Below, one piece after another: positions 2,491 through 25,168 of a stretch of DNA of 32,000 bases. Position 1 is the stretch's first letter; the number at the start of each line of letters is the position of its first letter. A program made the position numbers and the translations under genes. The DNA comes from Candidatus Saccharimonadota bacterium (lineage in GTDB: Archaea > Nanobdellota > Nanobdellia > Pacearchaeales > GW2011-AR1). The notes beneath the pieces are model-generated. The model had not been told where the DNA came from, did not search any database, and saw only the letters and a program-made list of their open reading frames with translations. The stretch covers positions 360,001 through 392,000 of the forward strand of contig BPGA01000001.1 in assembly GCA_026002795.1 (NCBI GenBank). The letters run 5' to 3'.

Positions 2491-2712
2491 ATGCCCAAAA
2501 AACACAAAAAAACAAAATCTGCTGGAAGATTTGGCCCGAGATATGGAAAAAAAGTTAAAGACAAAATTGTTGAAATTGAATCTATACAAAGAAAAAAACA
2601 AAACTGCCCTTTTTGTGGTAAAAAAGGAGTTAAAAGACTTGCAAAAGGAATTTGGTTTTGTAAGAAATGTAATAAAAAGTTTGCTTCAAACGCGTATTAT
2701 CTAAAAGAATAA
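2491..2712 (+). CDS. rpl37ae: 50S ribosomal protein L37Ae (eL43), zinc-ribbon
   Basis: MPKKHKKTKSAGRFGPRYGKKVK... followed by CPFCGKKGVKRLAKGIWFCKKCNKKF (CxxC-x14-CxxC). An alternative in-frame ATG at 2470 would add 7 aa. I prefer 2491 because eL43 proteins start directly with the basic K/R..G..G.RYG segment. Confidence 0.85.
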   Translation: MPKKHKKTKSAGRFGPRYGKKVKDKIVEIESIQRKKQNCPFCGKKGVKRLAKGIWFCKKCNKKFASNAYYLKE

Positions 2713-7127: not shown

Positions 7128-7272
7128 AGCTATCTAAATTCACTGCTTTGTTTTATCAAAAAAAAACAAAAAAATAAATAAAAATAACAACACACAACAA
7201 AAACCTTTTACAATTTTTTTAGTTAAAACTTAAATAGAAATTTTTCTCTACTTTTTCATTTAATTTAGATTT

Positions 7273-7902
7273 TTAGCTCTTTTCATTTAATTTTACAAAA
7301 GTTTCAACCATAAATCTTTCCATTCCCTCTAAAATTTCGCAATCTTTTATGTTTATTTCATAACAAGCAGGACCTATTTGTTTTATGTTTGTAGAATTTG
7401 ACTCTTGCAGGGAAATGTACATCGAATTTCCAAGTAAATCACAACCAAAATCAGATGTTGCATTAATATTTACATCCATAATCCTGTAAAGAGTTGCGAA
7501 ATTTGCAACTGCAACTGATTCATAACCTTTACAGCTTTTGTCGAAAGTTATGTCCATAAAAAGATTTTTCTTTAAACTTAAATTTCCTTCAAACACAACT
7601 TTTTTTTCAAGAGTTCTCGGATCATTCCTAAGATAAAAATTATAATTTGCTTTTTTGAGCTGGCCATTTTCTCTATAAGTTACAGGCAATTGTGTATTGT
7701 AGGTTTTCAAACAAGGCCCTTGATCACAAAAATTAACAACCTTAAACTTAACTCCTCTATACTCAAAACTTCTTGGTAGATTTATTATGTAGGCTATAAC
7801 AAATACAAGAATTAAGATTATTAAAGCTGAGAGCAAAACAACCCTTAATATTTTTTCTTCATACGAAATTTTTTTTGTTTTTTTGAAAGTTTTTTTAGCC
7901 AT
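7273..7902 (-). CDS. N-terminally anchored extracytoplasmic protein, unknown function (paralog of 8014-8601)
   Basis: Basic N-terminus plus a single TM (KILRVVLLSALIILILVFVIAYII) and a Cys-containing ectodomain. The C-terminal block SNSTNIKQIGPACYEINIKDCEILEGMERFMVETFVKL aligns with the C-terminus of the neighbouring gene product. Confidence 0.6.
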   Translation of the reverse strand: MAKKTFKKTKKISYEEKILRVVLLSALIILILVFVIAYIINLPRSFEYRGVKFKVVNFCDQGPCLKTYNTQLPVTYRENGQLKKANYNFYLRNDPRTLEKKVVFEGNLSLKKNLFMDITFDKSCKGYESVAVANFATLYRIMDVNINATSDFGCDLLGNSMYISLQESNSTNIKQIGPACYEINIKDCEILEGMERFMVETFVKLNEKS

Positions 7903-8013: not shown

Positions 8014-8601
8014 TTATCTTATTTTTAAGATTTTAAACAAAAACTCATCTGTAAGCTTTAAAATTTCTCTATCTTTTCCTTGAATAAAGACGCAATTATC
8101 TTTTTCAGTTATAGAAGTTTCATTAGAAATTTTAATAAATATAAAATTGTCAGAACAGGTTTTTTTAGGTAGACTTTCATCATTACACTCTTCATTCTCT
8201 AAACAAGCATTTTGCACTCTTTCAACAAGTCCAACAAGATTAACATACACCTCATTTTTTGCTGTTTCATCTTGTGAATAGATGTAAAGAGGTTTTTTTA
8301 GATATTTTTCAAAAGAAGAAATACCAACACCATAACTTTGGAAAGATTGTATTTCTAAAGGATTATAAGAGAAAACAAAATTTCCTAAAACCCATAGTCC
8401 GTTTCTATTTTCAAATTCATAATTTTTGTATTTTATTTTGTTTAAAGAGTTTGAAGAGCTATCTGTAGTTCCAGAATTGCTTTGTATTGCAAAACCAATT
8501 GTACCTAGAACCATCACTAAAAGTAGCACAACACCTAATATAATCTGGTTTCTTTTCCTTTTTCTTTCAGCCTCTTCTTTTGTAACAAGCTTTTTAATCA
8601 T
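8014..8601 (-). CDS. N-terminally anchored extracytoplasmic protein, unknown function (paralog of 7273-7902)
   Basis: Basic N-terminus plus TM (IILGVVLLLVMVLGTIGFAI). C-terminal block SNETSITEKDNCVFIQGKDREILKLTDEFLFKILKI shares the pattern SN.T.I...C..I..KD.EIL...F with the neighbour. AAGGAGA lies immediately before the ATG. Confidence 0.6.
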   Translation of the reverse strand: MIKKLVTKEEAERKRKRNQIILGVVLLLVMVLGTIGFAIQSNSGTTDSSSNSLNKIKYKNYEFENRNGLWVLGNFVFSYNPLEIQSFQSYGVGISSFEKYLKKPLYIYSQDETAKNEVYVNLVGLVERVQNACLENEECNDESLPKKTCSDNFIFIKISNETSITEKDNCVFIQGKDREILKLTDEFLFKILKIR

Positions 8602-8739: not shown

Positions 8740-11373
8740 TTAAGGTGATACTTTTGACATTGTTGATGTTCCACCGCTTCCAACAGTTCCTATGTATTTA
8801 GTACCTGCTGTTGTGTCTACTGATTCTGGTTGATTTATTAACCTTTGTGCAGCAGCAGCAGTTTCAGCTGCTTCATAACCAGCAACAAGTAGAGCTATCT
8901 TTCCACCAGTTCTAGAGAAGCTTTGTATTAAGAACTGGCCAGAACCAACACCTGTTGCAGAGGTCCATGCACTTCCACAGTATGCTCCACCGACCAAGCT
9001 AGCAGCAACAGTGTTTATGCAGCTTCCACCTACAACAACTAGATTCTTATTGCCAACAGATGCAACTTCATTATCAGTAACAAGCACTCCACCCAAAGAT
9101 TGAGTCTGATTTGTTGTGGATGTTCCACCAACAGAGTCTACAAAGAGCTTTGCATAAACCTGACTTGAAGGATAGGCTACTTCTGCTGTTTTTTGATCTG
9201 AATCACCAGCATCAACAGTAACCAAAGTACCCCACCAATCAACATACTTTGTGATGTCTGAATCACTCTGCAATGTTGCTGAGTACTGTGTTGGTGATGT
9301 TAGATATACACTATTGACACCAACGCCATCTGTACTTGTTCCATCACCAGGTTCTGTATCTATTACAACAACCTCATAATTGTTGTTGTCATCTTTTCCT
9401 TCAAATAAAACAACAGCTGGTGTTGTAATAACATTTGAAGCTCCTGGTGCTACCAAGTACAATTTTGTTTGGTTATCAGCGCCAGTACTCTGGAAACTGT
9501 AAGTTAATCTACCAACTGTTACATTAGCTGTATCATTGCCAGGAGCAGCGTTGGTAGTTAATAGATTTCCTCCAATACTCCAGGTGGTGTTTCCTGCTGT
9601 ACCATTTATAAGAGACGCAGTTACGCTAGTGTAACCATCTCCATCAGGGAAATTAAAGGTGCCTGCATCTGTACCACTACCATCCATATCAGCTAAGTTT
9701 AATGTTAATGGTTGGTAAAGCGCTACTAAGGCTCCTGTTTTTGTTTGAATTGTTGGATACACAACAAATGTAGCAGAATTTGCAGAATCTGAGGTTGGGT
9801 ATTTAATTCTTATTGAACCTCCAGATCCTGATCCACCACCAGGACCAGCATAAGTAATAGTGTACTCTTTTCCGCCCAACGAGAGTGTTGTTGTACCTTC
9901 TGTTGTAGGACTTCTTGCCCTTATAGTCTCACCAGAAAGAACATCCCTAAATTGTACAATATCACTTCCAGCTGTACTTGAGTCGTTAGATACAGAATCT
10001 ACCTGAAGTAAGTAGCCGTTCTCTTCATTACCCAAGACAACATACTGGTCTTCTGTGAGATTTGCCATTTCAATTACACTAATTGTAAAGTTGCTATCAT
10101 CTCCTAAAAAGAATTGATTACTTTGGTTGTGAGCCCAATCAAATGTCTTTGTATTACCCCTGTGATCTGTCATTGTTAGTGATAGTGTATCATCTCCTAC
10201 TACACCAACACTCAACGACTCTCTTGCTGGGTCATCTAAAGGAGAACTCAATCCAACAAAAGATAATTTAAATGTTCCAAATACAGGATCAACAAAACTC
10301 GATCCCGCAACAATAGCATCGTTGCTTGTACTTGGAGCAAAAACAGCTATAGCTATTTCAGTTGTTGAATTTGTGCCACCTACAATGTAAACTAATGTGC
10401 CATCAACAGAGGTATCGTCAGAACCAACTTTAACATTATTTCCATTGGAAAGAGTCACTTTTTGTGCTCCTGCAATAACTGTTGCAGATAGCTGGAAATT
10501 TGTTTCATCAGCATTCTTAACAGCAACCTCTAGCCCTTGGATCTTTTTAACATTACCCTCATCTACTTCAGCAGTACTGCTTCTTCCAGCACTATCAGTT
10601 ACTTTTAAAGTAGCTGCAGTATCAGAAGCTGAAACTAACTCAATTGTATATGTTGAGCCGCCAACAGTTACACTTGCACTTCTAGAATCGCTTGTTAAGG
10701 TAACTGTTTGAGCTTCTTTTAACAACACAATATTACTACTATCTGTTGCTGTTGAAACAGTAAAGGTCTGCCCAAACAACTTTATCTCCTGGTTTTCAGA
10801 ATCTGGGCTTGTAAAATTAACAGCCTTACTGAAAATTACAGATGCATTATACAATGGATTTGATGTTGCACTTGTACCCAAACTAACTCCAATTACAGGG
10901 TCATTACTTGTTTTAGGCTGCCTTGCAAAAATAACTTTTCCAGAGTTATCTCCACCAGCAGGAGCACCTGCCTGTAATTTTATAGTATGGGTTAATCTTG
11001 CATCAACATTTCCAGAAAAGGTTGTATCTGCAAGTAAGTTAGGCATTTCTGTTTTTGTAAGACTGCTTCTTGCAGTATTTAATGATGTATTAAGCCAGAT
11101 TCTTGTAGAGCTAGTGTCTAATGAAACAGCAGAACTACTTAAGGATACATCACCCCCACTGCTTACCAAGCCTTGCAACCAGTTTGCAATGTTTGTTGCT
11201 TGAGTTTGGTCAAGTCCTTGTGGAGCAGCTGAACCATATACAACTGCAAAATCACCTACACCATTTTGAACAAAAGGAGCAGGAGCAGCAGCTGCAGCAG
11301 CAACCCCAGCTGTCATACCAATCATTAAAGCACTTGTTGCAAGCGCTGATATTTGTCTAAAATTAAATTTCAT
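8740..11373 (-). CDS. S-layer protein (Methanococcales/Thermococcales-type S_layer_N / S_layer_C-like ends), 877 aa
   Basis: Signal peptide MKFNFRQISALATSALMIGMTAGVAAAAAA|PAP. The N-terminal block DFAVVYGSAAPQGLDQTQATNIANWL and the C-terminal block NLVVVGGSCINTVAASLVGG...GKIALLVAGYEAAETAAAAQRLI resemble the conserved ends of archaeal S-layer proteins. Thr/Ser/Gly/Ala/Val-rich, Lys-poor, many N-x-S/T sequons. Strong AGGAGGT upstream, dedicated terminator hairpin downstream, and clearly higher G+C than its neighbours. Confidence 0.75.
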   Translation of the reverse strand: MKFNFRQISALATSALMIGMTAGVAAAAAAPAPFVQNGVGDFAVVYGSAAPQGLDQTQATNIANWLQGLVSSGGDVSLSSSAVSLDTSSTRIWLNTSLNTARSSLTKTEMPNLLADTTFSGNVDARLTHTIKLQAGAPAGGDNSGKVIFARQPKTSNDPVIGVSLGTSATSNPLYNASVIFSKAVNFTSPDSENQEIKLFGQTFTVSTATDSSNIVLLKEAQTVTLTSDSRSASVTVGGSTYTIELVSASDTAATLKVTDSAGRSSTAEVDEGNVKKIQGLEVAVKNADETNFQLSATVIAGAQKVTLSNGNNVKVGSDDTSVDGTLVYIVGGTNSTTEIAIAVFAPSTSNDAIVAGSSFVDPVFGTFKLSFVGLSSPLDDPARESLSVGVVGDDTLSLTMTDHRGNTKTFDWAHNQSNQFFLGDDSNFTISVIEMANLTEDQYVVLGNEENGYLLQVDSVSNDSSTAGSDIVQFRDVLSGETIRARSPTTEGTTTLSLGGKEYTITYAGPGGGSGSGGSIRIKYPTSDSANSATFVVYPTIQTKTGALVALYQPLTLNLADMDGSGTDAGTFNFPDGDGYTSVTASLINGTAGNTTWSIGGNLLTTNAAPGNDTANVTVGRLTYSFQSTGADNQTKLYLVAPGASNVITTPAVVLFEGKDDNNNYEVVVIDTEPGDGTSTDGVGVNSVYLTSPTQYSATLQSDSDITKYVDWWGTLVTVDAGDSDQKTAEVAYPSSQVYAKLFVDSVGGTSTTNQTQSLGGVLVTDNEVASVGNKNLVVVGGSCINTVAASLVGGAYCGSAWTSATGVGSGQFLIQSFSRTGGKIALLVAGYEAAETAAAAQRLINQPESVDTTAGTKYIGTVGSGGTSTMSKVSP

Positions 11374-11856: not shown

Positions 11857-12207
11857 ATGCAGCTTATCAAATCAAAACAAAAAACACTTAGTTTAGAAAA
11901 CCATAAAGGAGCTTTCTCTTTATTTAAAAAAGCAGAAGAAGGGATAAATTTTAATGATATTTTTGAGTTAAGAAGTATCTTAAGCAACGAAAAAGCAAAA
12001 ATTTTGTACATTATAAAACACGAGAAGCCCGAATCTATTTATAAGCTTTCAAAGCTTTGTGGAAGAAGTTTTAGAGCTGTATTAAGAGATGTAAAAATGC
12101 TTGAAAAATTTGGGTTTATTAAAATTATTAAAGAAAAAAACAAGCTTAAAATAAGGCATAGGCCTGTTATTGATATAGAAAACCTTGTTTTGAACTTTAA
12201 AATATAA
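11857..12207 (+). CDS. Winged helix-turn-helix DNA-binding protein (COG4190/ArsR-like small regulator)
   Basis: Pattern LRSILSNEKAKILYIIKHEKPESIYKLSKLCGRSFRAVLRDVKMLEKFGFIKI (helix-turn-helix plus wing), followed by a C-terminal RPVIDIENLVLNFKI, as in small archaeal wHTH regulators. Confidence 0.6.
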   Translation: MQLIKSKQKTLSLENHKGAFSLFKKAEEGINFNDIFELRSILSNEKAKILYIIKHEKPESIYKLSKLCGRSFRAVLRDVKMLEKFGFIKIIKEKNKLKIRHRPVIDIENLVLNFKI

Positions 12208-12248: not shown

Positions 12249-12755
12249 TCAATAATAAATTTTAAAAGAAACTTTTAATGCTTGTTGAGAGGTTGTAAAA
12301 TCCTGTAAAGAGCCTTTATAATTGTTAGTTATATTTCCTTTTCTTATCTCTATTATGTTTTTTAAGCTACTTTGCATTAAAAACTCATAACCTTTTATTG
12401 GAGTGTTTTCAATTGGCCAGCTTGCATCTAAAATACCTTTTATTGTTTCATTTAAAACATCACAGCTTGGTCTTCCATCTAAACAATTTACTTCATCAAC
12501 ACACTGAAAAGCAAGCTTTCTTATTGTTAAATTTCCTGAAGAGTCTGAACAGCTTGTTGTATATTGAAGAGAAGCCTGAATAAAACTTTCAACCTCATAG
12601 CTTTCAACAGATTGTTTTGTTCCTGCTCTTAAAACAAAAAACAAAATTCCTAAAATGATTATTGAAACAAGTATAACAATAATAGCAAAACCAACCATCT
12701 CTTCTTGTGCTTTTTTCGGTTTTTTTAAAACTACTTTTTTTGTCAAATCTCGCAT
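12249..12755 (-). CDS. Class III signal peptide (type IV pilin-like) protein, 168 aa
   Basis: N-terminus MRDLTKKVVLKKPKKA|QEEMVGFAIIVILVSIIILGILFFVL: a basic stretch ending KKAQ followed by a hydrophobic helix. Four Cys in the ectodomain. Last gene of the seven-gene minus-strand cluster. Confidence 0.65.
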   Translation of the reverse strand: MRDLTKKVVLKKPKKAQEEMVGFAIIVILVSIIILGILFFVLRAGTKQSVESYEVESFIQASLQYTTSCSDSSGNLTIRKLAFQCVDEVNCLDGRPSCDVLNETIKGILDASWPIENTPIKGYEFLMQSSLKNIIEIRKGNITNNYKGSLQDFTTSQQALKVSFKIYY

Positions 12756-12786
12756 TTTACCTTTTTTCGATCTTTTTTTAGTTACT

Positions 12787-13311
12787 CTACTCTTTTAATT
12801 TATATGTTACAATGACCTTTGCAAGCTCACAAACATTTACTTGTCTAGCTTTTTCTTCATCATAATCTTTTCTACATAAAGCAGCAAAATTTGAAAAAGA
12901 TGTTCCTGAATCTGTGTTTTTTATTATGATGCTGTTGCAATTAGGATAATTTTCTTGAGTACATTCAATTTTTTCTTCAGATTTAGGAAAAACTTTTCTT
13001 ATTTCAATTCCAGAAACTTCCCAAAAATTTCCATACAGGTTTTGATATTTTTTTAGAGCCATGATTTTGTCAGAGTCTATACAATTTCCTTCACTCCTTT
13101 CAAAAGCATTTCCACAAGAAAACTCAGGAGAATTTGAGAGTTTAGAGACTAAAAGCAAAGCCTCTCTTTGCTCTACTAACTCAGAAGATCCTTTAATTCC
13201 AGAAAAAACAAAAGTTAAAAGAAAAAGACCAGCTATTGCAAAAAATAAGCTGACTGCAATTAACATAAATGCCATTTGTTGTATTTTTATTTGTGCTTTT
13301 TTTTCTTTCAT
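12787..13311 (-). CDS. Class III signal peptide (type IV pilin-like) protein, 174 aa
   Basis: N-terminus MKEKKA|QIKIQQMAFMLIAVSLFFAIAGLFLLTFVF. Six Cys in the ectodomain. 31-nt gap to the downstream gene. Confidence 0.65.
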   Translation of the reverse strand: MKEKKAQIKIQQMAFMLIAVSLFFAIAGLFLLTFVFSGIKGSSELVEQREALLLVSKLSNSPEFSCGNAFERSEGNCIDSDKIMALKKYQNLYGNFWEVSGIEIRKVFPKSEEKIECTQENYPNCNSIIIKNTDSGTSFSNFAALCRKDYDEEKARQVNVCELAKVIVTYKLKE

Positions 13312-13332
13312 TTTATAAAAACTTTATTCATT

Positions 13333-14268
13333 TTACCAGAGTTTACATCTAGCTCTTTCATTTGATAATTCTGCATCATCAGCAAAATTCTTAACAAAAG
13401 TTAAATCATCTGAACTGTTGTAAGAGTTTAACGAGTTTATTAAAGGAAGCAGATTCACTTCAGAGATACATCCTTGATTTGCAAGAATGTTTGTCTTTTC
13501 ATTATAAATTCTTGAAAGAATTTCTGCTCTTTTCATAAGCCTTTTAACATTACACTCATAATCTTGTTTGTTGTTAGAGAATATGGCAGCATAAAGTAAA
13601 GCATCTGTTTCGTAATAAACTTCTTCTCTTTCTAAGCTAACTGTTTTTAAATTTTCATTTACGAAAACATTACAGCCAGTTCTTGATTTGAAACAGATTT
13701 TTTTTGAATTTGAAGGACAATCTTTAACAAATAAATTTTCTTGATTTAAATTTGAAATTTCTCTTTCTATGTTTTTAGGAGCATCTAAAAAACAATAGCT
13801 TTCATCAGAAGATGTAAAATACATTAAATCAGCTACTTTAAAAGGAAATTCAAAAGGCTTTGTAAAAACAAAAAATTTTTTTCCTTGAACAGTCTTATTT
13901 GAAAAAATATATTTATTTTCTGAGACTAAAGAAAAATCAGTTGAAACAAACTTGTTTGATATTTTTTGTTTTAGAGAGATTTCTTGTTTACCAAAATCAG
14001 TAAAACTAGAACAAGAAAAAATTAATTGGGTTTCAGTAGGCATATCAATAGAAATAGAGCTTCCAGATTCAGGACCAGATTCTAAAGGATTTAATAAAGA
14101 TTCAAACTCTTGAGAAAGCTCAGCAGAAACTTTTTCTTCACCAACATTAATGACTCTAGTTGAAGCATAGATAGCAATAAAAATTATTATTGCACCAACA
14201 ATTATTGCAAAAACCCATGCAAAAGGAAACTGAAGTTGTGCTTTTTTATTCAGTTTTTTTAACGACAT
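13333..14268 (-). CDS. Class III signal peptide (type IV pilin-like) protein, 311 aa
   Basis: N-terminus MSLKKLNKKA|QLQFPFAWVFAIIVGAIIIFIAIYAS. Eight Cys in the ectodomain. 21-nt gap to the downstream gene. Confidence 0.65.
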   Translation of the reverse strand: MSLKKLNKKAQLQFPFAWVFAIIVGAIIIFIAIYASTRVINVGEEKVSAELSQEFESLLNPLESGPESGSSISIDMPTETQLIFSCSSFTDFGKQEISLKQKISNKFVSTDFSLVSENKYIFSNKTVQGKKFFVFTKPFEFPFKVADLMYFTSSDESYCFLDAPKNIEREISNLNQENLFVKDCPSNSKKICFKSRTGCNVFVNENLKTVSLEREEVYYETDALLYAAIFSNNKQDYECNVKRLMKRAEILSRIYNEKTNILANQGCISEVNLLPLINSLNSYNSSDDLTFVKNFADDAELSNERARCKLW

Positions 14269-14322
14269 TTTTTATATAGCTTAACTGTTTTAACTTTTAA
14301 CTTTATAATTAATCTTATTTTT

Positions 14323-14829
14323 TCAAGCTCTCTCTAATGAAACTGTTCTATCTGTGAATTCTTTTAAAATTCTAATTTTAATTTTTCCGCCGTTAGAATT
14401 GATACAATAAGGATTTTCTTCAGAAGTTATTTCTTCAATATTTATGTTTTTTATTGAGGCAGAATCTATACCAGTGTGTTTTATAGGATAAAATACCATG
14501 TTTTCAGATCCTTCTTTTACTTTCTTTAATTCAACATAAATTAATGAGTCTTTTCCTTTTGAAGGAACTGAAAAATCAACAAAACAAACTTTTGTGTATT
14601 TTGTTGGAATGAAATACTCTCTTACTTCTGAGCTTTGTGAGCTTTTCCATGCAGTATCAACATCTGCTTGCAATTCTTTTATAAAATTTCCTGCTTTTGC
14701 ATTATCTTGAAACCTCAAAAAAGCCCTTATGCCATAAAAACCAAAAATTAGAAAGAAAATTATTAGAATTATTGAGATTATCATTCCAAAAGAAATCTGC
14801 ATTTGTGATTTTTTAGTTCTTTTTTTCAT
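14323..14829 (-). CDS. Class III signal peptide (type IV pilin-like) protein, 168 aa from ATG 14829
   Basis: N-terminus MKKRTKKS|QMQISFGMIISIILIIFFLIFGF. The track start at 14844 is a TTG; the ATG five codons downstream gives the same short basic leader as the paralogs. Two Cys. ATTAATAAA sits about 29 nt upstream of ATG 14829 and is a possible internal promoter. Confidence 0.65.
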   Translation of the reverse strand: MKKRTKKSQMQISFGMIISIILIIFFLIFGFYGIRAFLRFQDNAKAGNFIKELQADVDTAWKSSQSSEVREYFIPTKYTKVCFVDFSVPSKGKDSLIYVELKKVKEGSENMVFYPIKHTGIDSASIKNINIEEITSEENPYCINSNGGKIKIRILKEFTDRTVSLERA

Positions 14830-14980
14830 TATGATTAAAATCAAAAACAGTTTATTAATCTAACTTTTCATTGGCATTAACATAATAAATTTTTAAAATA
14901 AAAATAAGATTTATTTCAAAAGTTAAGGAAGTATAAATTTAATGAAGTGTACTTTCTTTTTACAAAAATTAAATTTTTTA

Positions 14981-17401
14981 TTAAACTTGGAAAGCTTTTG
15001 CAATTAAAGTACATCCGTTTACAGGAGGCTGATTTCCAAATTTATCTTGACATTTTATGTAGAAGTTTTTATTAGGATCCCAAGAAACAGTGTGTTCTAT
15101 GTTGTTTCTTGTTGTCATGTTTGATCCGTCTTCCATGTTGTATGTACACGCTATTTTGTCAGAAGTACTATAAACACAAGAAGATTCTTCATCAGTTATA
15201 ACTTTTAGATTATTTTGATCACTGAAAACTCTTACAATAACTGGCGGTTCTTTATCTACTTCAACTCTAAAGTTTATTTGCTTTGTGTCTATATTACCGC
15301 CTAAATCAATACAACTTACATAAAATGTATGATCTCCCTGAACAAGATTTAATTCTTGCTGATGTTTGTTAGTTCCTGTTGTGAGAAACTGAATATATGT
15401 TCCCTCTTCTCCAGTATCACTATAAGAGCATATTGCTTCTCCATTTTTGTAGCCAGCAAAAGTTTCTGCTTCTAGAGTTACTTTAACAACCCTTGTAGAA
15501 TCTTTTATTGTTGTTGAGTTAGGAGCTAGAGAAGAAATTATTAAAGGCCTTGTTCCAATTAAAGTATACTTGTATGATTGTTTGTTTACATTTCTTCTTG
15601 ACTCATTTTCAGTTCCTTTTAAATGAGGCTGGTCTAAACATCTAAAGTAAAATACATTATCTTGCCTGTCTTTTAATCCAGTTAAAGTTGTTTTACATTG
15701 ATATGCTTGTCTGTTGTTAAAGTTAAATAAATTTTGTTCACATTCCATGTTATTTTCCATGTTTTCATAACTCTGATCTAGTGTTGACCATTTGCATTCT
15801 GAAGGTTCATTTAGATAGGCACTAATGTTTATTTCTGTTGTATTACTAGATATTGGTTTACCGTTTGGAAGAGAAAAATCAAGAATTAGAGGAGGACTTG
15901 TGTCTGGACCCTGATCAACACAAAATCTAAAGACAATGTTGTTTAAATTAAAGTTTCCATTAACATCCTGACATCTAGTGTAAATAGTGAATTCTCCGTT
16001 GCTCTTTAATGTTATATCTTCAGATTGTAATGCTTCAGTACTTGGTATTTGTATTGTTTCAGAATGATTATATCTATTGAGAGAACTTCCTCCAAAGTAT
16101 CTAGACATGCTTTCAAAATCTCTTTTATTTACAACATCAAGCTTGCATTTTCCTGGTTCGTTTAAAGTAACGCCAAATCTTAAAGGAGTATAAGGCTGTA
16201 CACAACCATTAACATTATTTTCAGGAACAATTCTATAACCTCTGTCTGGAGGAGAGGTTTTGTCATCTGGAATATATTTATAACCTAAAGGTAAAACATC
16301 ATTCCAAGGAGTTATTACAGGAGGAGTTGTGTCATCTTTTCTTAACCAAGCGCATTTTTCTTCTGGAGTTCCTTTGTTTATAATTTCACAAGCCTGTCCA
16401 AGGCTTTTACATCTGTATTCAGTACAAGGAATATCTCCTTTATTACACTCTTCACAATTCTGGCCGCCTGTTACAGCATCCCATGGCAAACAAGAAAATT
16501 CAACAGCATCATAGCGCGTTTTTTTGAAGCTTAAAGCAAAAATAAGCGCTCCAACTACAGCTCCACCTATTAAAGCCACAACAGTACTTGCGCCAAATAC
16601 ACCTGCAAGAACTCCCTTTCCAAAAAAATAACCACCAGCTAATCCCCGAGAAAAAGCTTCTCTAAATTCAGGAGATCCTATTTTTAAAAAATTTAAGACA
16701 AATTTAGTTCCGAAATAAATTGCAACCGCTACTCCAGCATTTTCAATTAATCCTCCAAGAGTTGTCTTTCCAACTTTTGTTGATAAAATTCCTCCTAAAA
16801 ATCCTCCACCTGTCTGTTTTCCAGCTTCACCACCTTGTTGAGTATCTCCTTTTTTTGATTTGTTTAGTATTCTATCCAGCTCTCTTTGACCTATATCAGA
16901 TATTTTTCTTTCTGCAGCTTTTACAGGGATATCCGCTACAGTGGGTACTATACCTTTAATAACTGAATCTCTTTGCTTATTTCCAGAAGATTTTGTAAGA
17001 CTAGGACAGCTTTTTATTACAGAACTTTTTAAAGTGTACTGGCCGCTTCCTCCGCTAGCTTCAGCAGGATCATTGCAGAGTTGCTTTCTAAAACCCTCTC
17101 CTAACCAATTCCTACAAAAATAATTTATTGTATAAACTTTTCCTGTATAATCACCAGAAGGCTCTACACAATTACTATAACAAACAACATTATTTCCATC
17201 AATTCTCCAATAAGCTCCGCTACCAATTTGTACACATTGAGAAGTTTGTGTTTGCTGGGCGCTAACTAAATTATCTCTTGAAATTAAATAAGAAAAAGCA
17301 AAAATACTTAAAGTCATTAGAATTATTTCTAAAAAAACAACAAAATTCTTTTTAATTTTTTTATTAAACTTTTGTTTTTTATCAATTTTTTGAAATTTCA
17401 T
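14981..17401 (-). CDS. Large multi-domain envelope protein (806 aa): N-terminal anchor, Cys-rich modules, Gly-rich hydrophobic segment, four tandem beta-sandwich repeats
   Basis: N-terminal TM (FVVFLEIILMTLSIFAFSYLI). A 6-Cys module at aa 56-132. A Gly-rich hydrophobic region at aa ~186-292 (GGGFLGGILS...AGGYFFGKGVLAGVFGASTVVALIGGAVVGALIFALSF). A 7-Cys knot at aa 304-350. Four repeats of ~90-140 aa, each opening with a Pro-rich strand (TTPPVITP, TSPPLILD, TRPLIISS, EPPVIVRV) and ending with Y..C.D..GN (YTRCQDVNGN, YFRCLDQ, YVSCIDLGGN, YIKCQDKFGN). Confidence 0.7.
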   Translation of the reverse strand: MKFQKIDKKQKFNKKIKKNFVVFLEIILMTLSIFAFSYLISRDNLVSAQQTQTSQCVQIGSGAYWRIDGNNVVCYSNCVEPSGDYTGKVYTINYFCRNWLGEGFRKQLCNDPAEASGGSGQYTLKSSVIKSCPSLTKSSGNKQRDSVIKGIVPTVADIPVKAAERKISDIGQRELDRILNKSKKGDTQQGGEAGKQTGGGFLGGILSTKVGKTTLGGLIENAGVAVAIYFGTKFVLNFLKIGSPEFREAFSRGLAGGYFFGKGVLAGVFGASTVVALIGGAVVGALIFALSFKKTRYDAVEFSCLPWDAVTGGQNCEECNKGDIPCTEYRCKSLGQACEIINKGTPEEKCAWLRKDDTTPPVITPWNDVLPLGYKYIPDDKTSPPDRGYRIVPENNVNGCVQPYTPLRFGVTLNEPGKCKLDVVNKRDFESMSRYFGGSSLNRYNHSETIQIPSTEALQSEDITLKSNGEFTIYTRCQDVNGNFNLNNIVFRFCVDQGPDTSPPLILDFSLPNGKPISSNTTEINISAYLNEPSECKWSTLDQSYENMENNMECEQNLFNFNNRQAYQCKTTLTGLKDRQDNVFYFRCLDQPHLKGTENESRRNVNKQSYKYTLIGTRPLIISSLAPNSTTIKDSTRVVKVTLEAETFAGYKNGEAICSYSDTGEEGTYIQFLTTGTNKHQQELNLVQGDHTFYVSCIDLGGNIDTKQINFRVEVDKEPPVIVRVFSDQNNLKVITDEESSCVYSTSDKIACTYNMEDGSNMTTRNNIEHTVSWDPNKNFYIKCQDKFGNQPPVNGCTLIAKAFQV

Positions 17402-17415
17402 TTTTGAGTTTATTC

Positions 17416-19077
17416 TTAACCTTTATAATCTTCACTCCATCTTACTATACTTCTATTTATGAAACCTTTTTGACCAAGATAATTTAGCTTTTCACCACAA
17501 TCTCCTAAAGAGATACACATATTCATTTTTTCAGCAAACCATTTGTTGTTGGTAGTTGCTTTTTTTATACTATCACCTTTTTTTAATCCTAAACACTCAC
17601 AATTCTCTTTACACTCCCAATCACCTAATAATCCTTTTTGAAATTTTACAAGGCAAGTATCACTAGCTATTGCGCATAATTCATCTGCATTTCCTTCTTC
17701 CCAAAAATTAAATCCAGGAGGATAAAGAGGAAGGCAGCTAGCTCCTTTTCTAGTGTCATCTTTTTTTCTCTCGACAAGCTCTCCTCTTTCATTTACAACT
17801 AAAGGATTTCCAGAATCATCTTTTAAAATACTCTGTCCTTCTACCCATTTACAATCTCTAACATCTCTATTTTCACAATCTTGCTTGCTTGTTTGTAAAA
17901 CACAATCATCCCATCTATTAGCAACACAGCCAGCTGACTTAAATCCAGGAACAACTTCTTCTTCTATACATACAGTATTTCTAAAAGGATCACAAAGAGT
18001 AACAGTAACCTCACCACTATAACAAGCAAATACAGCATGTTCAGACCCTGGAGAATTTTCATTTCCTTTTGTTCCAGTTGTTCCGCACCATCTTTCTCCG
18101 TGTTGATATGTTTTTCCTTGATATTTACAACTTAAATCAGCACAAACAAAATCACCATATGAAGGTTTTACAGGAGTTTGAGGATCGTTTCTTCTATATG
18201 CTTTACATAGACTTCCGAGCAAATAATTACAATTTCCACAGCTTGCAGAATTTGCGTTGCTTGAATCAGGATTACAACTTTCAGCTGGATCTTTTATGTA
18301 AGTCCAGTACTCTTGATTGTTAACTTTTGATGAATCATAAACATTAGCAATATTACCACAGCTATCAATAAAGTAAACTTCATCTTTATTTTCAACACAC
18401 GTTGTTTTTGAAGTTGGAGCGCATTGTGTTGCTAAAACTTCTGCCGTGCATAAAAGTCCTTCATGAAACTGAACTTTTGTGTCTGAGGAGGATTTTTTTT
18501 CAAGAGAGATACACTCTGATCTTGTTGTTCTCTTACAACTTCTCTCAAATCCTTTTTCTAAAACACAAGCTCCTTCAACATCAGGATTTGCGCTTAAAAT
18601 ACATTCACTTTCAGAGTTTATATCTGGTCTGAAAGTTGTATTAGTTCCATAATCAGAGGCTAAAGTTTTACATCTTATTTGATTTACAAATGCAGTGTTT
18701 TGTCCTATAAAGCAGCAACCACGTTTGCATTGTGGAATTTCATCTTCTTTTTTATCAAACCAAACTCCTCCAGAATTTTGACAAACAATCTGAGGAGTAT
18801 TTCCCGTACACTGGCCAGTATTTACATTTACACATGTTCCTAATTTACAATAAGATGTTGATTCACAAGAAGTTGGAGCTTTTCTGAATCCAGAAGCACA
18901 TTCTGCAGGAGGAGAAGGCTGACACCAATTTCCTGCTGTTGTTTTTTCACAACAAAACGATTGTTGTTGCTCTTGAGCAGAAATTCTCTTATTCAAGAAA
19001 ATGAAGAATAAAGCAAACACAAACAAAATTACAACTAAAAACACAAAACCTCTTTTGATTTGTTTTTTATCTAACAT
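17416..19077 (-). CDS. Cysteine-rich secreted/anchored protein (553 aa, 43 Cys by my count), unknown family
   Basis: The N-terminus MLDKKQIKRG|FVFLVVILFVFALFFIFL could be either a class III or an ordinary signal (ISA|QEQ). The rest has a Cys every ~12 residues, including CC pairs (SFCCEK, RGCCFI, ENCEC). I recognise no family motif. 14-nt and 16-nt gaps to the flanking cluster genes. Confidence 0.7.
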   Translation of the reverse strand: MLDKKQIKRGFVFLVVILFVFALFFIFLNKRISAQEQQQSFCCEKTTAGNWCQPSPPAECASGFRKAPTSCESTSYCKLGTCVNVNTGQCTGNTPQIVCQNSGGVWFDKKEDEIPQCKRGCCFIGQNTAFVNQIRCKTLASDYGTNTTFRPDINSESECILSANPDVEGACVLEKGFERSCKRTTRSECISLEKKSSSDTKVQFHEGLLCTAEVLATQCAPTSKTTCVENKDEVYFIDSCGNIANVYDSSKVNNQEYWTYIKDPAESCNPDSSNANSASCGNCNYLLGSLCKAYRRNDPQTPVKPSYGDFVCADLSCKYQGKTYQHGERWCGTTGTKGNENSPGSEHAVFACYSGEVTVTLCDPFRNTVCIEEEVVPGFKSAGCVANRWDDCVLQTSKQDCENRDVRDCKWVEGQSILKDDSGNPLVVNERGELVERKKDDTRKGASCLPLYPPGFNFWEEGNADELCAIASDTCLVKFQKGLLGDWECKENCECLGLKKGDSIKKATTNNKWFAEKMNMCISLGDCGEKLNYLGQKGFINRSIVRWSEDYKG

Positions 19078-19093
19078 TTTTGCTTATGTTTTT

Positions 19094-19900
19094 TTAGTAT
19101 ATTGCTATTCTTGATGCTTCATGTCCTGGAGACCATTCTAAGCTTCTTGAAGCAAATTGAAATTTATCTCCGCTTCTTCTGTCTGTTATAATATAAACAA
19201 CTCCCTCTCTTTCTCTTGATATTTTTTCAACTTTAATCCACCTAAATATGTCCATGTAAATTGTAGGATCAGCATCTCCTAATGAAGCTTCAAACTCAAG
19301 TATACTATTAGCAATCCAAACAAGTTCATAAAGATTACTGTTCACAACAATCTCAAAATCTTTAAATGTTTGTGTGTTTCCTTTTGTTACAGTTATTTCA
19401 TTAGTAGTATTAACAATAATTCTTTTAGGCACAAGCCTGACATTTAAATTTCCTTTCTTAAAGTTAACATTGTAACCTCTATCTTCATAATTTCTCACGA
19501 GCTGATTAAAACAAAAATTAAACTCTTCTTCAATTTCTTTTTTAATTTCATTTTCTATATGACTCTGTAAAAAAGGTTTTTGAACAACACATGTTTTAAA
19601 ATCTTCTGCAGTGTAACAAGCATACTCTATTTTATAACCTTTATACTCTAGATAACCTTCTGGATTTGCGCTTCCTCCTTGTAAAGAGATAGTTTCAATA
19701 GCATTATTTAGAGATTCCTCAATACAATTTTGTATGAATGTCTGAGGATTTGTTTCTTCAAATCTTTCAGTTGTTCTTGCACTTCTATTTAAAAAATAAA
19801 TAGACAAAATTGCACCAACTGCTAAAATAGCTATTATAATAAAAATAGCAACCTGGCCTTTCTTAAAAAAAGAACCACCCCTTTTTAAAAAATTTCTCAT
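19094..19900 (-). CDS. Class III signal peptide (type IV pilin-like) protein, 268 aa; first gene of the cluster
   Basis: N-terminus MRNFLKRGGSFFKKG|QVAIFIIIAILAVGAILSIYFL, the textbook archaeal prepilin motif KG|Q followed by a hydrophobic helix. Four Cys. TTTTTAAAT sits about 30 nt upstream of the ATG. Confidence 0.7.
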   Translation of the reverse strand: MRNFLKRGGSFFKKGQVAIFIIIAILAVGAILSIYFLNRSARTTERFEETNPQTFIQNCIEESLNNAIETISLQGGSANPEGYLEYKGYKIEYACYTAEDFKTCVVQKPFLQSHIENEIKKEIEEEFNFCFNQLVRNYEDRGYNVNFKKGNLNVRLVPKRIIVNTTNEITVTKGNTQTFKDFEIVVNSNLYELVWIANSILEFEASLGDADPTIYMDIFRWIKVEKISREREGVVYIITDRRSGDKFQFASRSLEWSPGHEASRIAIY

Positions 19901-22115: not shown

Positions 22116-23912
22116 ATGAAAAAAAATTTGATTTTTGTTTTAATGTTTGTTGTAGTTTTAAGCTTATCTTTTATTAGTTCCCAATTATTAAACTCTAGTG
22201 AGCAACAAAAAAGGGTAAATCAGGCTTATTCTTGTTTGGATAGTAAGATAAAAGGAAAATGCTCTTCTCTTTCAATAGAAGAAAGAATTTTTTCTTTTTT
22301 ATCAACAGGCCAGTGCAGACAAGAGATGATTTCTTCTTCTAAAAACGGAGAGTGCTGGCCACAAACAACAGGAGAGTGTAAAATTAAAACAACTGCCCAA
22401 GCAATTCTTTCATTAGAAAATAACAATGTAGATTCTACAAAACCAAAAAATTGGCTTCTTAATAAAACAAAAAATCCGACAGAACTTGTTTGGTATCTTC
22501 AAATTGATAGTAATGAAGCAACTTCTTGTACAATAGGCTATAGAGGTCAGACATACAATGTAAATATAAATGAAAATAAAATTTTAAGTAATAATGCTGG
22601 TGCATGTTTAATAGTTTCTGAAAACGGATATTGGTTTCAAATTTCTTCTTCTTGTTATAATGAAGAGATAACCATTTCTTGCGATAAAGATTTTTTAACT
22701 TCTCTTTTATTTAAAAAAACAACTTCTTCAACAATAAATGTTCTTCCAGAAGTTTCTTCTGCATCAGCAGGAGGAACTACAAGAGAAAAAGTAGAATCAT
22801 TATGTTTTGTTGAAGGAAACTCTTGTAATTATGAAGGGAGTCTTTGGGCTACTCTTGCTCTAGCTTCTTTGGGAGAAGAGACAAAACAGTATATGCCTTA
22901 TTTAGTTGCTTTAGCTGATGAAAATCCAAAGTTTCTTCCAGAATCTTTTTTGACATATCTTACAGGAGATTCTTCTTATAAAGCTGCTTTAATCTCAAAA
23001 CAAAAAGAAAGTAGTTATTGGTTAGAATCTGGAGACAAATTTTATGATACAGCTCTTGCTCTTTATCCTTTGCAAAAAGAAAGCTTAGAAGAAGTTGAAA
23101 ATTCTAAAAATTGGCTTTTAACAAATCAAGATAGAAACGGTTGTTGGCAGGATAGCTTAAAAAATACTGCTTTTATTTTGTTTTCAGTATGGCCTAAAAA
23201 ATTAGTTAGTAGTGATGGAAGCGGTGTTTCAGATTGCGAGTCATCTGGTTTTTATTGTACAACAATAGCTGGTTGTGAAGGAGAAATTTTATCAGAATAT
23301 AGTTGTCCTTCTTCGTACCAGTGTTGTAATAAACAACCAGTTCAAACAACCTGCTCTGAAGAAGGAGGAATTGTTTGCTCTCAAAATGAGAGATGTGTTG
23401 GTGGTACAACATTAGGCACTCCTGATTTAAGACTTGGAGAAAGTTGTTGTATTGGAGGGAGTTGTCAAGAGGCAGAAGAAGAAAGAAGTCTTTCAGATTG
23501 CGAACTTCAAGGAGGTGTTTGTAGAGCTAACTCTTGCGAAGAAAATGAAGAAGAAAAGGCATTTTCATGTAATTTACAATCTGAAGTTTGTTGTATGATA
23601 AAAATTAAAGAAAAGAAAAGTAATTTGCTATTTTGGATTCTTTTCATACTTGTTTTGTTAGTTGCATTAGGAATAATCTTCAGAGAAAAATTAAGGCATT
23701 ATTGGTTTAAATTCAGGGATAGTTTTGGAAAAAAGAAAGGACCCCCAACAACACCTCCTAAATACCCAAGTACTCCAACACAACCTTACCCTGTGCATAG
23801 AACAATAGAAAAACATTATGTTCCTGTTCAGAAAAAAATGCCATTAAAAAAAACATCTTCTCATGAGGAATTAGATGAAGTCTTAAAAAAACTTAAAGAA
23901 ATGGGTAAATAA
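22116..23912 (+). CDS. Type I membrane surface protein: alpha/alpha-toroid (prenyltransferase/terpene-cyclase QW-like) ectodomain, three Cys-rich modules, TM, Pro-rich cytoplasmic tail
   Basis: Signal peptide MKKNLIFVLMFVVVLSLSFISS. QW-like repeats KNWLLTNQDRNGCWQDSLKNTAFILFSVWP, SSKNGECWPQTTGECKIKTTAQAILSL and KQKESSYWLESGDKFYDTALALYPL. Three C-x6-7-C-x4-5-C...CC modules at aa 374-493 (nt 23235-23594). TM LLFWILFILVLLVALGIIF. Tail KGPPTTPPKYPSTPTQPYPV. Confidence 0.65.
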   Translation: MKKNLIFVLMFVVVLSLSFISSQLLNSSEQQKRVNQAYSCLDSKIKGKCSSLSIEERIFSFLSTGQCRQEMISSSKNGECWPQTTGECKIKTTAQAILSLENNNVDSTKPKNWLLNKTKNPTELVWYLQIDSNEATSCTIGYRGQTYNVNINENKILSNNAGACLIVSENGYWFQISSSCYNEEITISCDKDFLTSLLFKKTTSSTINVLPEVSSASAGGTTREKVESLCFVEGNSCNYEGSLWATLALASLGEETKQYMPYLVALADENPKFLPESFLTYLTGDSSYKAALISKQKESSYWLESGDKFYDTALALYPLQKESLEEVENSKNWLLTNQDRNGCWQDSLKNTAFILFSVWPKKLVSSDGSGVSDCESSGFYCTTIAGCEGEILSEYSCPSSYQCCNKQPVQTTCSEEGGIVCSQNERCVGGTTLGTPDLRLGESCCIGGSCQEAEEERSLSDCELQGGVCRANSCEENEEEKAFSCNLQSEVCCMIKIKEKKSNLLFWILFILVLLVALGIIFREKLRHYWFKFRDSFGKKKGPPTTPPKYPSTPTQPYPVHRTIEKHYVPVQKKMPLKKTSSHEELDEVLKKLKEMGK

Positions 23913-23944: not shown

Positions 23945-25168
23945 ATGGGAAAAATTTTATCTTTTTTGTTTATAGCTTTTTTATTTGCAATTTTTTTTGT
24001 AAATAGCATTTCTGCAGTCGAAATTAGTTTTTTTAAAGAGTCAAAAAATTTTTCTCAAGGAGAGACTATAATTTTTAAGGTGTCTGGAAATTTTATAGAT
24101 CAAATTACAAGAGAAAACATACTTTTTTTTAAAGATTCAGTAAGAATTCCTTTTGAATTTAATGTTGTTAAAATCTCTAATGATTTTTATGTTTATGCTT
24201 CTAGTTTATTTAAAAACGAAGGAAATTATTCTTTTGAAATAATTGATGTTAGATATTATAAAGGAATTGTTGTTAGTGATGAAAAAATTAAAGAAAATTT
24301 CACAATAAATTCAAAAATAGCTGACTTTTCTATAAATCCAGCAGCAATTAACACAAATACAAATTTCTTTATTGAAATAACTAATTTAAAAGATAAGAAA
24401 ATTGATATAGAAATTAAAAAACCAAAAGAAATTTTTTTAGAAGAAAGTAAAATATCTTTAAATTCAGGAGCAACAAGAAAATTAAACTTTATCCCATTAG
24501 AAAATTCTCAAGGACTTTACTTTATAGAGTTTAAATCTTCTTCAACAAATTACAAAATACCTATTTTTATAAAACAAGAAAACAAAACAACAAAAGAAGA
24601 AAAATTCGAATTCCAACCTAAAGAGATAAGCATTTTAATGCCAACAAATAGCACTTCAAAAAGAATTATCTATTTAGTTAATCTAGGAGAGAAAATTGAA
24701 GAAATCAATTTTCTTTTTTTAGGAAATGCCTCTTCTTTTTTAAAATTAGTTCCAGACAAAATAACTGAACTTGAAGAGAACGAAACAAAAAAAATAGAAC
24801 TTTTAATAAACTCGGATTTTGAAGAAAAAAATCTTTCAGCAACAATTCTCGCAAATTCTAATTCATCTTCTTCAGAAATTAAAGTTTTTTTAAGCTTTAT
24901 TAAAGATTTTGTCGAGAATGAAACAGAAGAAAATGCATCAAAAATAGTTAATTGTAAAGATATTAACGGAGAGATATGCAAAGAAGGATTTAAGTGTACT
25001 GGAGAGATAACTTATGTTAAAGATGGACCTTGTTGTTTATCTCCTGCTGTTTGCAAAGAAATTGAAAAAAAATCAAACAAAGGAAAGGTTATTGGTTGGG
25101 TAATTTTAATAGTGATAATTCTAATGGTTATTTTATTTTATAAAAAGTATAAAGGTGTTCGAAGATAA
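23945..25168 (+). CDS. Secreted beta-rich surface protein with one Cys-rich juxtamembrane module and a C-terminal TM anchor
   Basis: Signal peptide MGKILSFLFIAFLFAIFFVNSISA|VE. Asn/Lys/Ile-rich ectodomain with many N-x-S/T sequons. Module CKDINGEICKEGFKCTGEITYVKDGPCCLSPAVC (nt 24953-25054) matches the modules of the upstream gene. Terminal VIGWVILIVIILMVILFYKKYKGVRR. Confidence 0.6.
   Translation: MGKILSFLFIAFLFAIFFVNSISAVEISFFKESKNFSQGETIIFKVSGNFIDQITRENILFFKDSVRIPFEFNVVKISNDFYVYASSLFKNEGNYSFEIIDVRYYKGIVVSDEKIKENFTINSKIADFSINPAAINTNTNFFIEITNLKDKKIDIEIKKPKEIFLEESKISLNSGATRKLNFIPLENSQGLYFIEFKSSSTNYKIPIFIKQENKTTKEEKFEFQPKEISILMPTNSTSKRIIYLVNLGEKIEEINFLFLGNASSFLKLVPDKITELEENETKKIELLINSDFEEKNLSATILANSNSSSSEIKVFLSFIKDFVENETEENASKIVNCKDINGEICKEGFKCTGEITYVKDGPCCLSPAVCKEIEKKSNKGKVIGWVILIVIILMVILFYKKYKGVRR

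Follow-up and report, generated by a model that had tools for sequence, protein, structure and literature searches.

Operons of the fimU-pilVWXY1E type and the GspH-I-J-K genes of the type II secretion system (T2SS) each encode four or five single-copy pilin-like proteins, and the role expected of such minor-pilin plus PilY1 or pseudopilin sets is that of a priming or tip complex rather than of the bulk of the fibre. Type IV pilins can also be modular, with a grafted functional domain, as in PilB and PilC of Streptococcus sanguinis. The bindosome of Sulfolobus is a precedent for class III signals on sizeable globular non-pilin surface proteins that assemble near the S-layer; its substrates are recognisable solute-binding proteins, and it has its own ATPase and membrane protein. 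The Epd or "System 1" pili of Methanococcus maripaludis consist of EppA substrates, for which a glutamine at +1 is reported to be essential for processing (PMC4390842), and in this system the pilin genes may lie apart from those for the ATPase and the platform protein. Finally, ArlF and ArlG (FlaF and FlaG) link the filament machine and the S-layer, and multi-immunoglobulin (multi-Ig) "S-layer-like" proteins found beside archaeal filament machinery have been proposed to let the filament through the S-layer. Here we describe an operon of seven genes (g1 to g7 in order of transcription) from the contig BPGA01000001.1 (assembly GCA_026002795.1, positions 360,001 to 392,000, a stretch of 32 kb referred to below as the window), in which five proteins with class III-type signals bracket two giant cysteine-rich ones.

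An operon conserved across a DPANN clade

The seven genes are all found on the minus strand between 19900 and 12249 (Table 1). Our open reading frame (ORF) calls gave the same coordinates and intergenic gaps (16, 14, 151, 54, 21 and 31 nt) as an earlier note on this DNA, and the basic leader K-K-[G/A/S]-Q followed by a hydrophobic helix, quoted there for g1, g4, g5, g6 and g7, does open all five window proteins. The gene g4 has an alternative TTG start at 14844, upstream of the one at 14829. A DPANN origin, which had been only suspected, is now clear, since g1, g2 and g3 have 100% identity to KatS3mg001_437, _436 and _435, respectively, encoded on a 535,452-bp contig of a Ca. Pacearchaeota metagenome-assembled genome (MAG). 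Cysteine makes up 1.2-7.8% of the cluster proteins vs. 0-1.7% of the cytoplasmic proteins of the window. None of the Pfam and NCBIfam models gave a meaningful match to any of g1-g7. Chance or an ORF artefact can be ruled out, because hundreds of full-length homologs exist for g1, g2, g3 and g6 (the families searched). A search of full-text literature, with most subscription journals outside its reach, found no description of the cluster, and no curated model covers it, in line with the novelty presumed by the earlier note. We conclude that this is a real, undescribed and clade-wide module of pilin-like proteins.

Relatives of g3 were present in at least 580 species genomes when one genome per GTDB species was scanned. 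The best 80 g3 loci carried the labels Pacearchaeota, Woesearchaeota, Nanoarchaeota, Nanoarchaeia or a generic "archaeon", with one exception, a 3.2 kb contig (L071, CAZADO010000237.1) from a bin named "uncultured Alphaproteobacteria bacterium," which is probably a mis-binned DPANN contig. We counted at least 148 homologs of g3, 423 of g1 and 674 of g2 (none of the latter two sets with a Pfam domain), and g6 is a discrete family that, in a set of 1.84 billion proteins, comprises 367 representative clusters (50% identity). All the named homologs of g1, g2 and g3 are labelled hypothetical, bar two g1 matches with evidently spurious JGI labels (YceG and YpmB), and they belong to Pacearchaeota, Nanoarchaeota or unclassified "archaeon", with a single g2 match labelled Diapherotrites. 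The families are large and restricted to the Pacearchaeota/Woesearchaeota-type clade, of which the cluster is a hallmark.

For the analysis of synteny, ORFs were called in 85 related loci and assigned by phmmer, and the counts that follow take only the eligible loci, i.e., those in which the contig extends far enough. The genes recur in the order primase(-), PCNA, [x1, x2], g1, g2, g3, g4, g5, g6, g7, HTH(-), S-layer, d195, d209, where (-) marks the opposite strand, HTH stands for a helix-turn-helix regulator and x1-x2 is an additional module described below. The genes g4-g7 come in order after g3 in 46/52 loci, g1-g2 are ahead of g3 in 44/50, and the opposite-strand HVO_A0114-type regulator and the S-layer gene are downstream of the cluster in 38/41. 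The x1-x2 module is upstream in 30 of 40 loci, and the window represents the minority form that has neither gene. In the exceptional loci the cluster is either broken by small inserted genes or cut down to g3-g7. The seven-gene synteny, on which the earlier note had made its proposal depend, is therefore conserved in relatives, and a scattering of the homologs is refuted. Across the clade, the median identity to the window proteins is 40-50% for g1-g7, 41% for the S-layer protein, 58% for the primase and 66% for PCNA, values by which g1-g7 are fairly constrained for surface proteins.

Insertions between cluster genes were seen at L029 (3197-3803 and 6205-8913) and L070 (7873-9462, 10565-11499 and 13087-13743). 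The inserted genes are unrelated, e.g., a nucleotidyltransferase-like pair and HTH proteins, which suggests mobile or toxin-antitoxin-like cassettes that were inserted without loss of the cluster.

Table 1. Genes and other features of the 32 kb window, with the cluster first (a slash marks the predicted signal junction; E values are from model searches; TM, transmembrane; Ig/FN3, immunoglobulin/fibronectin type III).
Feature	Position	Strand	Size	Conserved Cys	Description
g1	19900-19094	-	268 aa	4	class III-type signal MRNFLKRGGSFFKKG/QVAIFIII...; alpha/beta ectodomain without known fold
g2	19077-17416	-	553 aa, 43 Cys	42	secreted; Sec-type signal ...ISA/QEQ
g3	17401-14981	-	806 aa, 27 Cys	21	N-terminal hydrophobic helix; tandem Ig/FN3-like beta-sandwich domains
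g4	14829-14323	-	168 aa	2	class III-type signal MKKRTKKS/QMQISFGMII...
g5	14268-13333	-	311 aa	8	class III-like signal MSLKKLNKKA/QLQFPFAWVF...
g6	13311-12787	-	174 aa	6	class III-type signal MKEKKA/QIKIQQMAFMLIAV...
g7	12755-12249	-	168 aa	4	class III-type signal ...KKPKKA/QEEMVGFAIIV...
HVO_A0114-family winged-helix regulator	11857-12207	+			PF25212, E 1.6e-15; between operon and S-layer gene; linked by synteny only
S-layer-like protein (S_layer_C)	8740-11373	-	877 aa	0	PF05124, E 1.4e-10; same strand as operon; linked by synteny only
d195	8014-8601	-		4	bitopic membrane protein; long basic N-tail, one TM helix
d209	7273-7902	-		4	bitopic membrane protein; long basic N-tail, one TM helix
pacearchaeosortase	6600-7127	+			NF033505, E 4.5e-65, above cutoff; recurs in 29 related loci
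PACE-CTERM "putative S-layer protein"	4165-5847	+			NF033506, E 1.7e-101; C-terminus ...GWFTWAIGILNIILIIIIIVVAIRLTRK; recurs in 17 related loci
tRNA-Pro (anticodon TGG)	2378-2450	+			sole RNA gene detected in the window
c598	22116-23912	+	30 Cys		secreted, conserved; weak TED-domain match only
c407	23945-25168	+			secreted, conserved; C-terminal TM helix and basic tail (GWVILIVIILMVILFYKKYKGVRR)
ComEA-like helix-hairpin-helix protein	25670-26254	-			membrane-anchored; HHH_3, 7.7e-15; TIGR01259, 3.7e-12, below cutoff
VRR-NUC nuclease	26266-26688	-			adjoins the ComEA-like gene

Class III-type signals and their conservation

The signals were examined in family alignments anchored on the window proteins, with 31-61 orthologs per family. 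All 50 orthologs of g1 have G/A/S at -1, Gln at +1 and Phe at +5. The residues at -1 and +1 are equally invariant in g6 (61/61), with K at +3 and Q at +5 in 60/61 each, and in g7, where E at +3, G at +6 and F at +7 are also found in 59/59. The g1 paralog x1 keeps both positions in 31/31 sequences, and the g4 orthologs have G/A/S at -1 in 58/61, Gln at +1 in 51/61, S at +5 in 54/61 and F at +6 in 60/61. About 80-87% of the family sequences have K or R at -2. Conservation on this scale goes far beyond what chance would give. The least canonical family is g5, with G/A/S at -1 in only 46/61 and mostly Y, F or G at +1, with Q or E at +3 (consensus [KR]-G-[Y/F/G]-L-[Q/E]-I-S-F-A-W-L-F), although the length of its orthologs is steady (305-323 aa); it is related to g4 over the first ~80 residues (hhalign 96%).

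Conservation changes abruptly at this junction. In the ortholog families the identity of the leader is 16-23% vs. 47-73% over the first 22 residues after the junction, g6 being a case in point with 22 and 73%, respectively, and the minimal leader length ranges from 3 to 62 residues (medians 6-9). Each family has a post-junction signature of its own, QVTIFIIIAI in g1 and x1, QMKLSFGMIFSII in g4, QLKIQQMAFMLIAVTLFF in g6 and QEEMVGFVLIII in g7. None of the membrane proteins taken as controls from these loci (g2, g3, x2, d195 and d209) has a class III junction. Such a sharp boundary at a small residue that follows a variable basic leader, repeated in six families with no other relation, has the look of a processed class III signal and is hard to reconcile with a plain signal anchor. 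The +1 Gln of g1, g4, g6, g7 and x1 matches the EppA/Epd class. The class III architecture with Gln at +1 that the earlier note read from the five N-termini is thus strongly upheld by the orthologs, with the reservation that g5 is less canonical.

We also considered the two giant proteins as carriers of such signals. The K-R-G/F found at the N-terminus of g2 is not kept in its orthologs and g2 was rejected as a sixth class III protein; it looks like an ordinary Sec substrate. For g3 the case is unsupported, as a clean [KR]-G junction is missing, though its helix is oddly conserved. In one relative (L059) that is devoid of g4-g7, a 131-aa ORF directly after g3 (7115-7510, minus strand) begins MKRKKGWLRIIEAFIAVLIV... 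and has a different pilin-like N-terminus, with [KR]-G, then a hydrophobic helix and Glu at +6, unrelated to those of g4-g7.

The giant proteins and a paralogous module

The proteins g2 and g3, whose families the earlier note could not recognise, indeed belong to none that Pfam, NCBIfam or PDB profile searches can identify. When their profiles were compared with PDB sequences both gave only chance-level matches, and no relative of solved structure was detected for g2, in which 42 cysteines are conserved in at least 85% of 50 orthologs. Further evidence came from the relatives carrying the x1-x2 module upstream (e.g., L004:3138-7567; also L001, L013, L023, L030 and others). The ~260-aa x1 is a full-length paralog of g1 (hhalign profile-profile, E 2e-73), and x2, of ~1,200 aa and with 60 conserved cysteines, is a fusion of a g2-like and a g3-like part: its residues 50-476 match residues 32-536 of g2 (hhalign E 2e-105) and its residues 599-1194 match residues 214-805 of g3 (hhalign E 5e-138). 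Most relatives therefore have two paralogous modules, each with one pilin-like and one giant protein. The joining of both parts in the single polypeptide x2 is classic fusion evidence for a physical partnership of g2 and g3, by which they constitute one two-part unit.

The AlphaFold2 model of g3 has a mean predicted local distance difference test score (pLDDT) of 83.9, and above 90 for most of residues 310-800. It starts with a hydrophobic helix (14-42), a small Cys-containing beta domain (55-131) and a disordered linker (137-213), followed by three tightly packed Gly/Ala-rich helices (215-291) and a segment with seven cysteines (304-350). The C-terminal part is a chain of beta-sandwich (Ig/FN3-like) domains with pLDDT above 90. 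Foldseek gave 491 PDB matches at E<1e-3, led by the Ig-Fn region of PTP-delta, desmoglein and cadherin ectodomains, DSCAM, large bacterial adhesins and the GhpA grappling hook. The model suggests a generic cell-adhesion or stalk rod in this region and not a specific homolog of any of the matches. The N-terminal third of g3 varies by lineage, and in most homologs the alignment starts only near residue 200.

For a signal peptide, the N-terminal helix of g3 is conserved to an unusual degree (...L-A-x-S-[Q/E]-I-x-L-L-I...A-F-S-Y...V-S-A, 94 homologs). Its Q/E is present in all of the 67/94 homologs that could be aligned by an anchor pattern, but this pattern itself demands Q/E, so that the figure shows recurrence and not invariance. 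The helix may be retained and packed with those of the pilin-like proteins.

The number of conserved cysteines is even in g1, g2, g4-g7, d195 and d209 (Table 1) and in x1, which has six; g3 is the odd exception, and the S-layer protein has none. Even counts fit disulfide-bonded extracellular proteins.

The heads of the small proteins

The AlphaFold2 model of g1 (pLDDT 89.4, predicted template modelling score 0.78) has an N-terminal helix at 15-45, which hence begins at the predicted cleavage site, followed by a mixed alpha/beta domain. Of the pilin fold that the earlier note had named as a test, the g1 model shows one part: the N-terminal hydrophobic helix is there, but the domain behind it matches no solved pilin. 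The top Foldseek matches of g1 (TFIIA, XRCC4 and PCNA) were discarded as spurious, with TM-scores of about 0.1-0.25.

Some g6 homologs (P0372, P0425 and P0461; 352-399 aa) have a domain of ~190 aa inserted in the middle of the head, with the N-terminal junction and the head kept. They had been considered as g6-g7 fusions, a possibility rejected since they are domain insertions. By analogy with modular pilins, these insertions suggest lineage-specific functionalisation. We also rejected g1-g7 as archaeosortase substrates, as their C-termini are not hydrophobic (maximal 15-residue mean hydropathy at most 1.1, vs. 3.65 and 3.47 in the neighbouring PACE-CTERM protein and c407). Taken together, g1 and g4-g7 have class III-type signals on novel heads, and membership of a known pilin family is not established.

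A candidate pilin-like stem with a giant partner

The picture that we favour, with moderate confidence, is that of a clade-wide envelope operon for a processed pilin-like stem that carries a g2/g3 adhesin or stalk. The proteins g1 and g4-g7 would be made with signals of the EppA/Epd kind (a basic leader that is short and variable and has a small residue at -1, followed by Gln at +1 and a hydrophobic helix of ~20 residues), and the leader would be removed by a class III signal peptidase encoded elsewhere. The five N-terminal helices could then pack in the membrane as a short stem resembling a pseudopilus or a minor-pilin complex; with five species in single copy and no candidate for a major pilin, a long homopolymer is less to be expected than a short stem. 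Mounted on the stem, or positioned by it, would be g2 and g3, i.e., a secreted 42-cysteine module and a membrane-embedded protein with an Ig-like exterior rod, and the complex may be placed at or across the S-layer, where it would serve as adhesin or stalk. It would depend on a distant ATPase and platform protein. Observed directly are the signal architecture and the break in its conservation, the gene order, the fusion of g2- and g3-like parts in the paralog, the Ig-like rod, the even cysteine numbers and the envelope-island context.

Several results weigh against this picture. The class III signal, pilin N-terminal and archaellin models of Pfam and NCBIfam gave no match at E<=1 for g1-g7, nor did those of Pfam at E<=0.1 among 142 members of the six families, so that the agreement with curated class III or pilin models that the earlier note had proposed as a check did not materialise. 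The profiles of g1 and g5 had only chance-level matches in the PDB, with no solved pilin or archaellin, and for the g1 model Foldseek retrieved nothing at E<1e-3 in PDB or BFVD and no pilin among the top 50. Outside g1 and x1, K, Q or E is found at +2/+3 of the mature N-termini, and the strict FlaFind pattern would reject polar residues at these positions. The topology of g3 is also awkward. In its family-averaged hydropathy only 18-47 and 271-293 stand out as clearly hydrophobic, with the two remaining modelled helices glycine-zipper-like, and an N-in helix followed by one or three more crossings would put the Ig-rich C-terminus in the cytoplasm; this is implausible because of the paired cysteines, and an even number of crossings, or none, is therefore needed. 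The same parity problem affects x2. Moreover, in close relatives the synteny spans nearly the whole window, including PCNA and the primase, and for this reason the adjacency to the S-layer gene or PCNA is weak evidence of a functional link.

The lack of assembly machinery nearby also weighs against the picture. When all substantial ORFs of the 32 kb were scanned with Pfam and NCBIfam, no secretion ATPase, platform protein or A24 peptidase came up, which confirms what the earlier note had remarked. Neither were there any in the flanks (up to 10 kb on each side) of 83 related loci, and the ORFs of the 85 loci (1.2 Mb) contained no secretion-ATPase Walker A or A24-peptidase motifs. A survey of DPANN genomes listed FlaI/J/K for Woesearchaeota and Nanoarchaeota and did not list Pacearchaeota (PMC8407392), and He et al., in a study that is widely cited, stated that type IV pilus components are missing in DPANN. 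In the atypical loci L039, L057, L049, L070, L029 and L059 the place of the missing cluster genes was taken only by unrelated or small inserted genes and not by machinery.

Other reports are more favourable to a distant machine. FlaI/FlaJ/FlaK were reported in most Woesearchaeota MAGs of one lake (PMC11606122), Epd-like "System 1" was described in a few DPANN (preprint 10.64898/2026.04.22.720090), and the census of Makarova et al. (2016) did not find the cognate pilins of a DPANN secretion ATPase clade (PMC4858521). It is plausible that the cluster is the source of these missing substrates, a link that we infer.

Alternative explanations

A first alternative, possible though on the unlikely side, is that g1 and g4-g7 are uncleaved bitopic (N-in) signal anchors, in which [KR]-[G/A/S]-Q would be a juxtamembrane packing or recognition motif and which would form a fixed scaffold with g2/g3, d195/d209 and the S-layer protein, serving for instance to anchor or space the S-layer much as ArlF binds it. 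In favour of such a scaffold are the lack of any pilin or class III model match, the g1 fold that is not pilin-like, the absence of machinery near any of the loci, the conserved adjacency to the S-layer gene and envelope island, and a sequence constraint that is moderately strong for surface proteins and no weaker than that of the S-layer protein. A parallel can be found in FlaF of Sulfolobus acidocaldarius, reported to be monotopic and to bind the S-layer protein (PMC4425475). However, a scaffold of this kind leaves unexplained why five or six unrelated families all have Gln at +1 after a small residue at -1, just where an unconserved basic leader of variable length gives way to the conserved helix, when other anchored proteins of the same loci (d195 and d209) have no such junction.

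The second alternative is the one put forward in the earlier note, a host-contact fibre or tip complex in which the pilin-like proteins prime or cap the filament of a distant type IV machinery and g2/g3 is the host-binding tip adhesin. It overlaps functionally with the stem that we favour, and we regard it as unlikely. The gene layout does parallel that of the fimU-pilVWXY1E type operon, the exterior of g3 resembles cell-adhesion ectodomains, the N-terminal third of g3 is variable among lineages and some g6 homologs have grafted head domains; DPANN are, in addition, mostly episymbionts according to the literature. The operon logic of a minor-pilin plus PilY1 cluster, to which the note had likened the layout, is therefore retained, but the homology is not, as g3 is Ig/FN3-like and g2 has no solved relative. 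Furthermore, no candidate major pilin was found in or near the cluster, and all seven proteins keep 40-50% identity and a strict order in hundreds of species whose habitats differ widely, when fast divergence is usual for host-recognition proteins and the clade has no known host. A core envelope function fits the constraint and the housekeeping island at least as well as host contact.

A more speculative, and to us quite improbable, proposal would be a surface organelle specific to Pacearchaeota/Woesearchaeota, with a stem of pilin helices that needs no dedicated ATPase or borrows the archaellum machinery, and in which the glycine-zipper helices of g3 (215-291) pierce a partner membrane as a pore or by fusion, as the basis of DPANN-host cytoplasmic bridging or nutrient piracy. 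These Gly/Ala-rich helices have extracellular-type domains on both sides. Finally, the ComEA-like gene and the VRR-NUC nuclease, about 6 kb from the operon and recurring in the few relatives with a long enough flank (L012 and L056), are a sequence-based hint at possible DNA uptake in a nucleotide-poor symbiont, and bacterial Com systems have one major and four minor pseudopilins, but that g1 and g4-g7 should be the minor pseudopilins of a competence-type, short retractile fibre bringing DNA to the ComEA-like receptor of a nucleotide-auxotrophic cell is very improbable, given that this gene is outside the operon with PCNA, the primase and two other genes between, that its match is below the NCBIfam cutoff, that the window has no ComEC-like channel or ATPase, and that g2/g3 would have no role.

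The genomic neighbourhood

Downstream of the cluster, the recurrence of the pacearchaeosortase and of its cognate substrate, the PACE-CTERM protein (Table 1), places the operon within a conserved envelope island with two different S-layer-type proteins. NCBIfam holds Pacearchaeota-specific models for this neighbouring sortase system and none that covers g1-g7. The small membrane proteins d195 and d209 are paralogous (hhalign probability 96.5%) and always come directly after the S-layer gene. On the other side, PCNA is directly upstream of g1 on the same strand, and beyond the primase gene are c598 and c407, which have a short homologous segment in common (hhalign 95%). Its C-terminal TM helix and basic tail make c407 a possible second sortase substrate. 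The other genes of the window are of an archaeal housekeeping kind and code for Spt5, L11, tRNA-Pro, prefoldin, SepF, a fused primase, a class II aminoacyl-tRNA synthetase, Cbf5/TruB and an RNA methyltransferase. An ORF of 126 aa (2221-2601, minus strand) that overlaps the tRNA-Pro and L11 genes is probably spurious.

Significance

Few uncultured archaea are as abundant and diverse as Pacearchaeota and Woesearchaeota, yet the cell surface and cell contacts of these two groups are almost uncharted. The operon bears directly on the composition of DPANN surfaces and on the way in which DPANN cells make contact with others, and supplies candidates that had no annotation, namely six new families with prepilin-type signals and a two-part giant with Ig domains. 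These families could extend pilin-prediction tools and archaeal type IV filament models, and they are specific targets for cryo-electron tomography, metaproteomics and heterologous cleavage. If the proteins turned out to be uncleaved, class III-like junctions would be conserved for another reason.

Comparison with known systems

With the Epd/System 1 pili the cluster has in common the class III signal with Gln at +1 and the presence of several different pilin-like proteins encoded together with adhesin-like accessory proteins. It differs from the Epd locus, which has its own ATPase, two platform genes and a peptidase, in having none of these within 10 kb in 83 loci. There is, besides, no match to a curated model and no evident short major pilin, and the heads are of 150-290 aa and disulfide-rich, with a fold that in g1 was not recognised.

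The fixed order of single-copy pilin-like genes together with a very large non-pilin surface protein is shared with the fimU-pilVWXY1E operon and the T2SS pseudopilin genes. However, the junction is [KR]-[G/A/S]/Q and not the G/F-T-L-I-E of bacterial minor pilins, with no homology in sequence or fold, and PilY1 has a C-terminal beta-propeller where g3 is an Ig-like rod with a membrane segment of its own. The bacterial hosts of type IVa pili or T2SS differ, too, from an archaeon that has an S-layer and no outer membrane.

Closer in setting are the archaeal proteins that connect filaments to the S-layer. ArlF/ArlG are monotopic, with an N-terminal hydrophobic helix and an extracellular beta-rich domain, and the presence of a multi-Ig g3 and pilin-like proteins beside an S-layer gene is reminiscent of the multi-Ig S-layer-like accessory proteins. 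Those accessories are found within complete archaellum or pilus loci, unlike the cluster, which stands outside such a locus and with no detected homology to them. As for the bindosome, nothing in the cluster resembles a solute-binding protein. The resemblance to modular pilins is one of analogy, the g6 homologs with an insertion of ~190 aa in the head and the unusually large heads of g1 and g5 recalling the grafted domains of the latter. Overall, the principle of class III signals on a pilin-like module with a large partner is known, and what is new here, in a locus without its own machinery that spans a major uncultured clade, are the families and the architecture in which they are combined.

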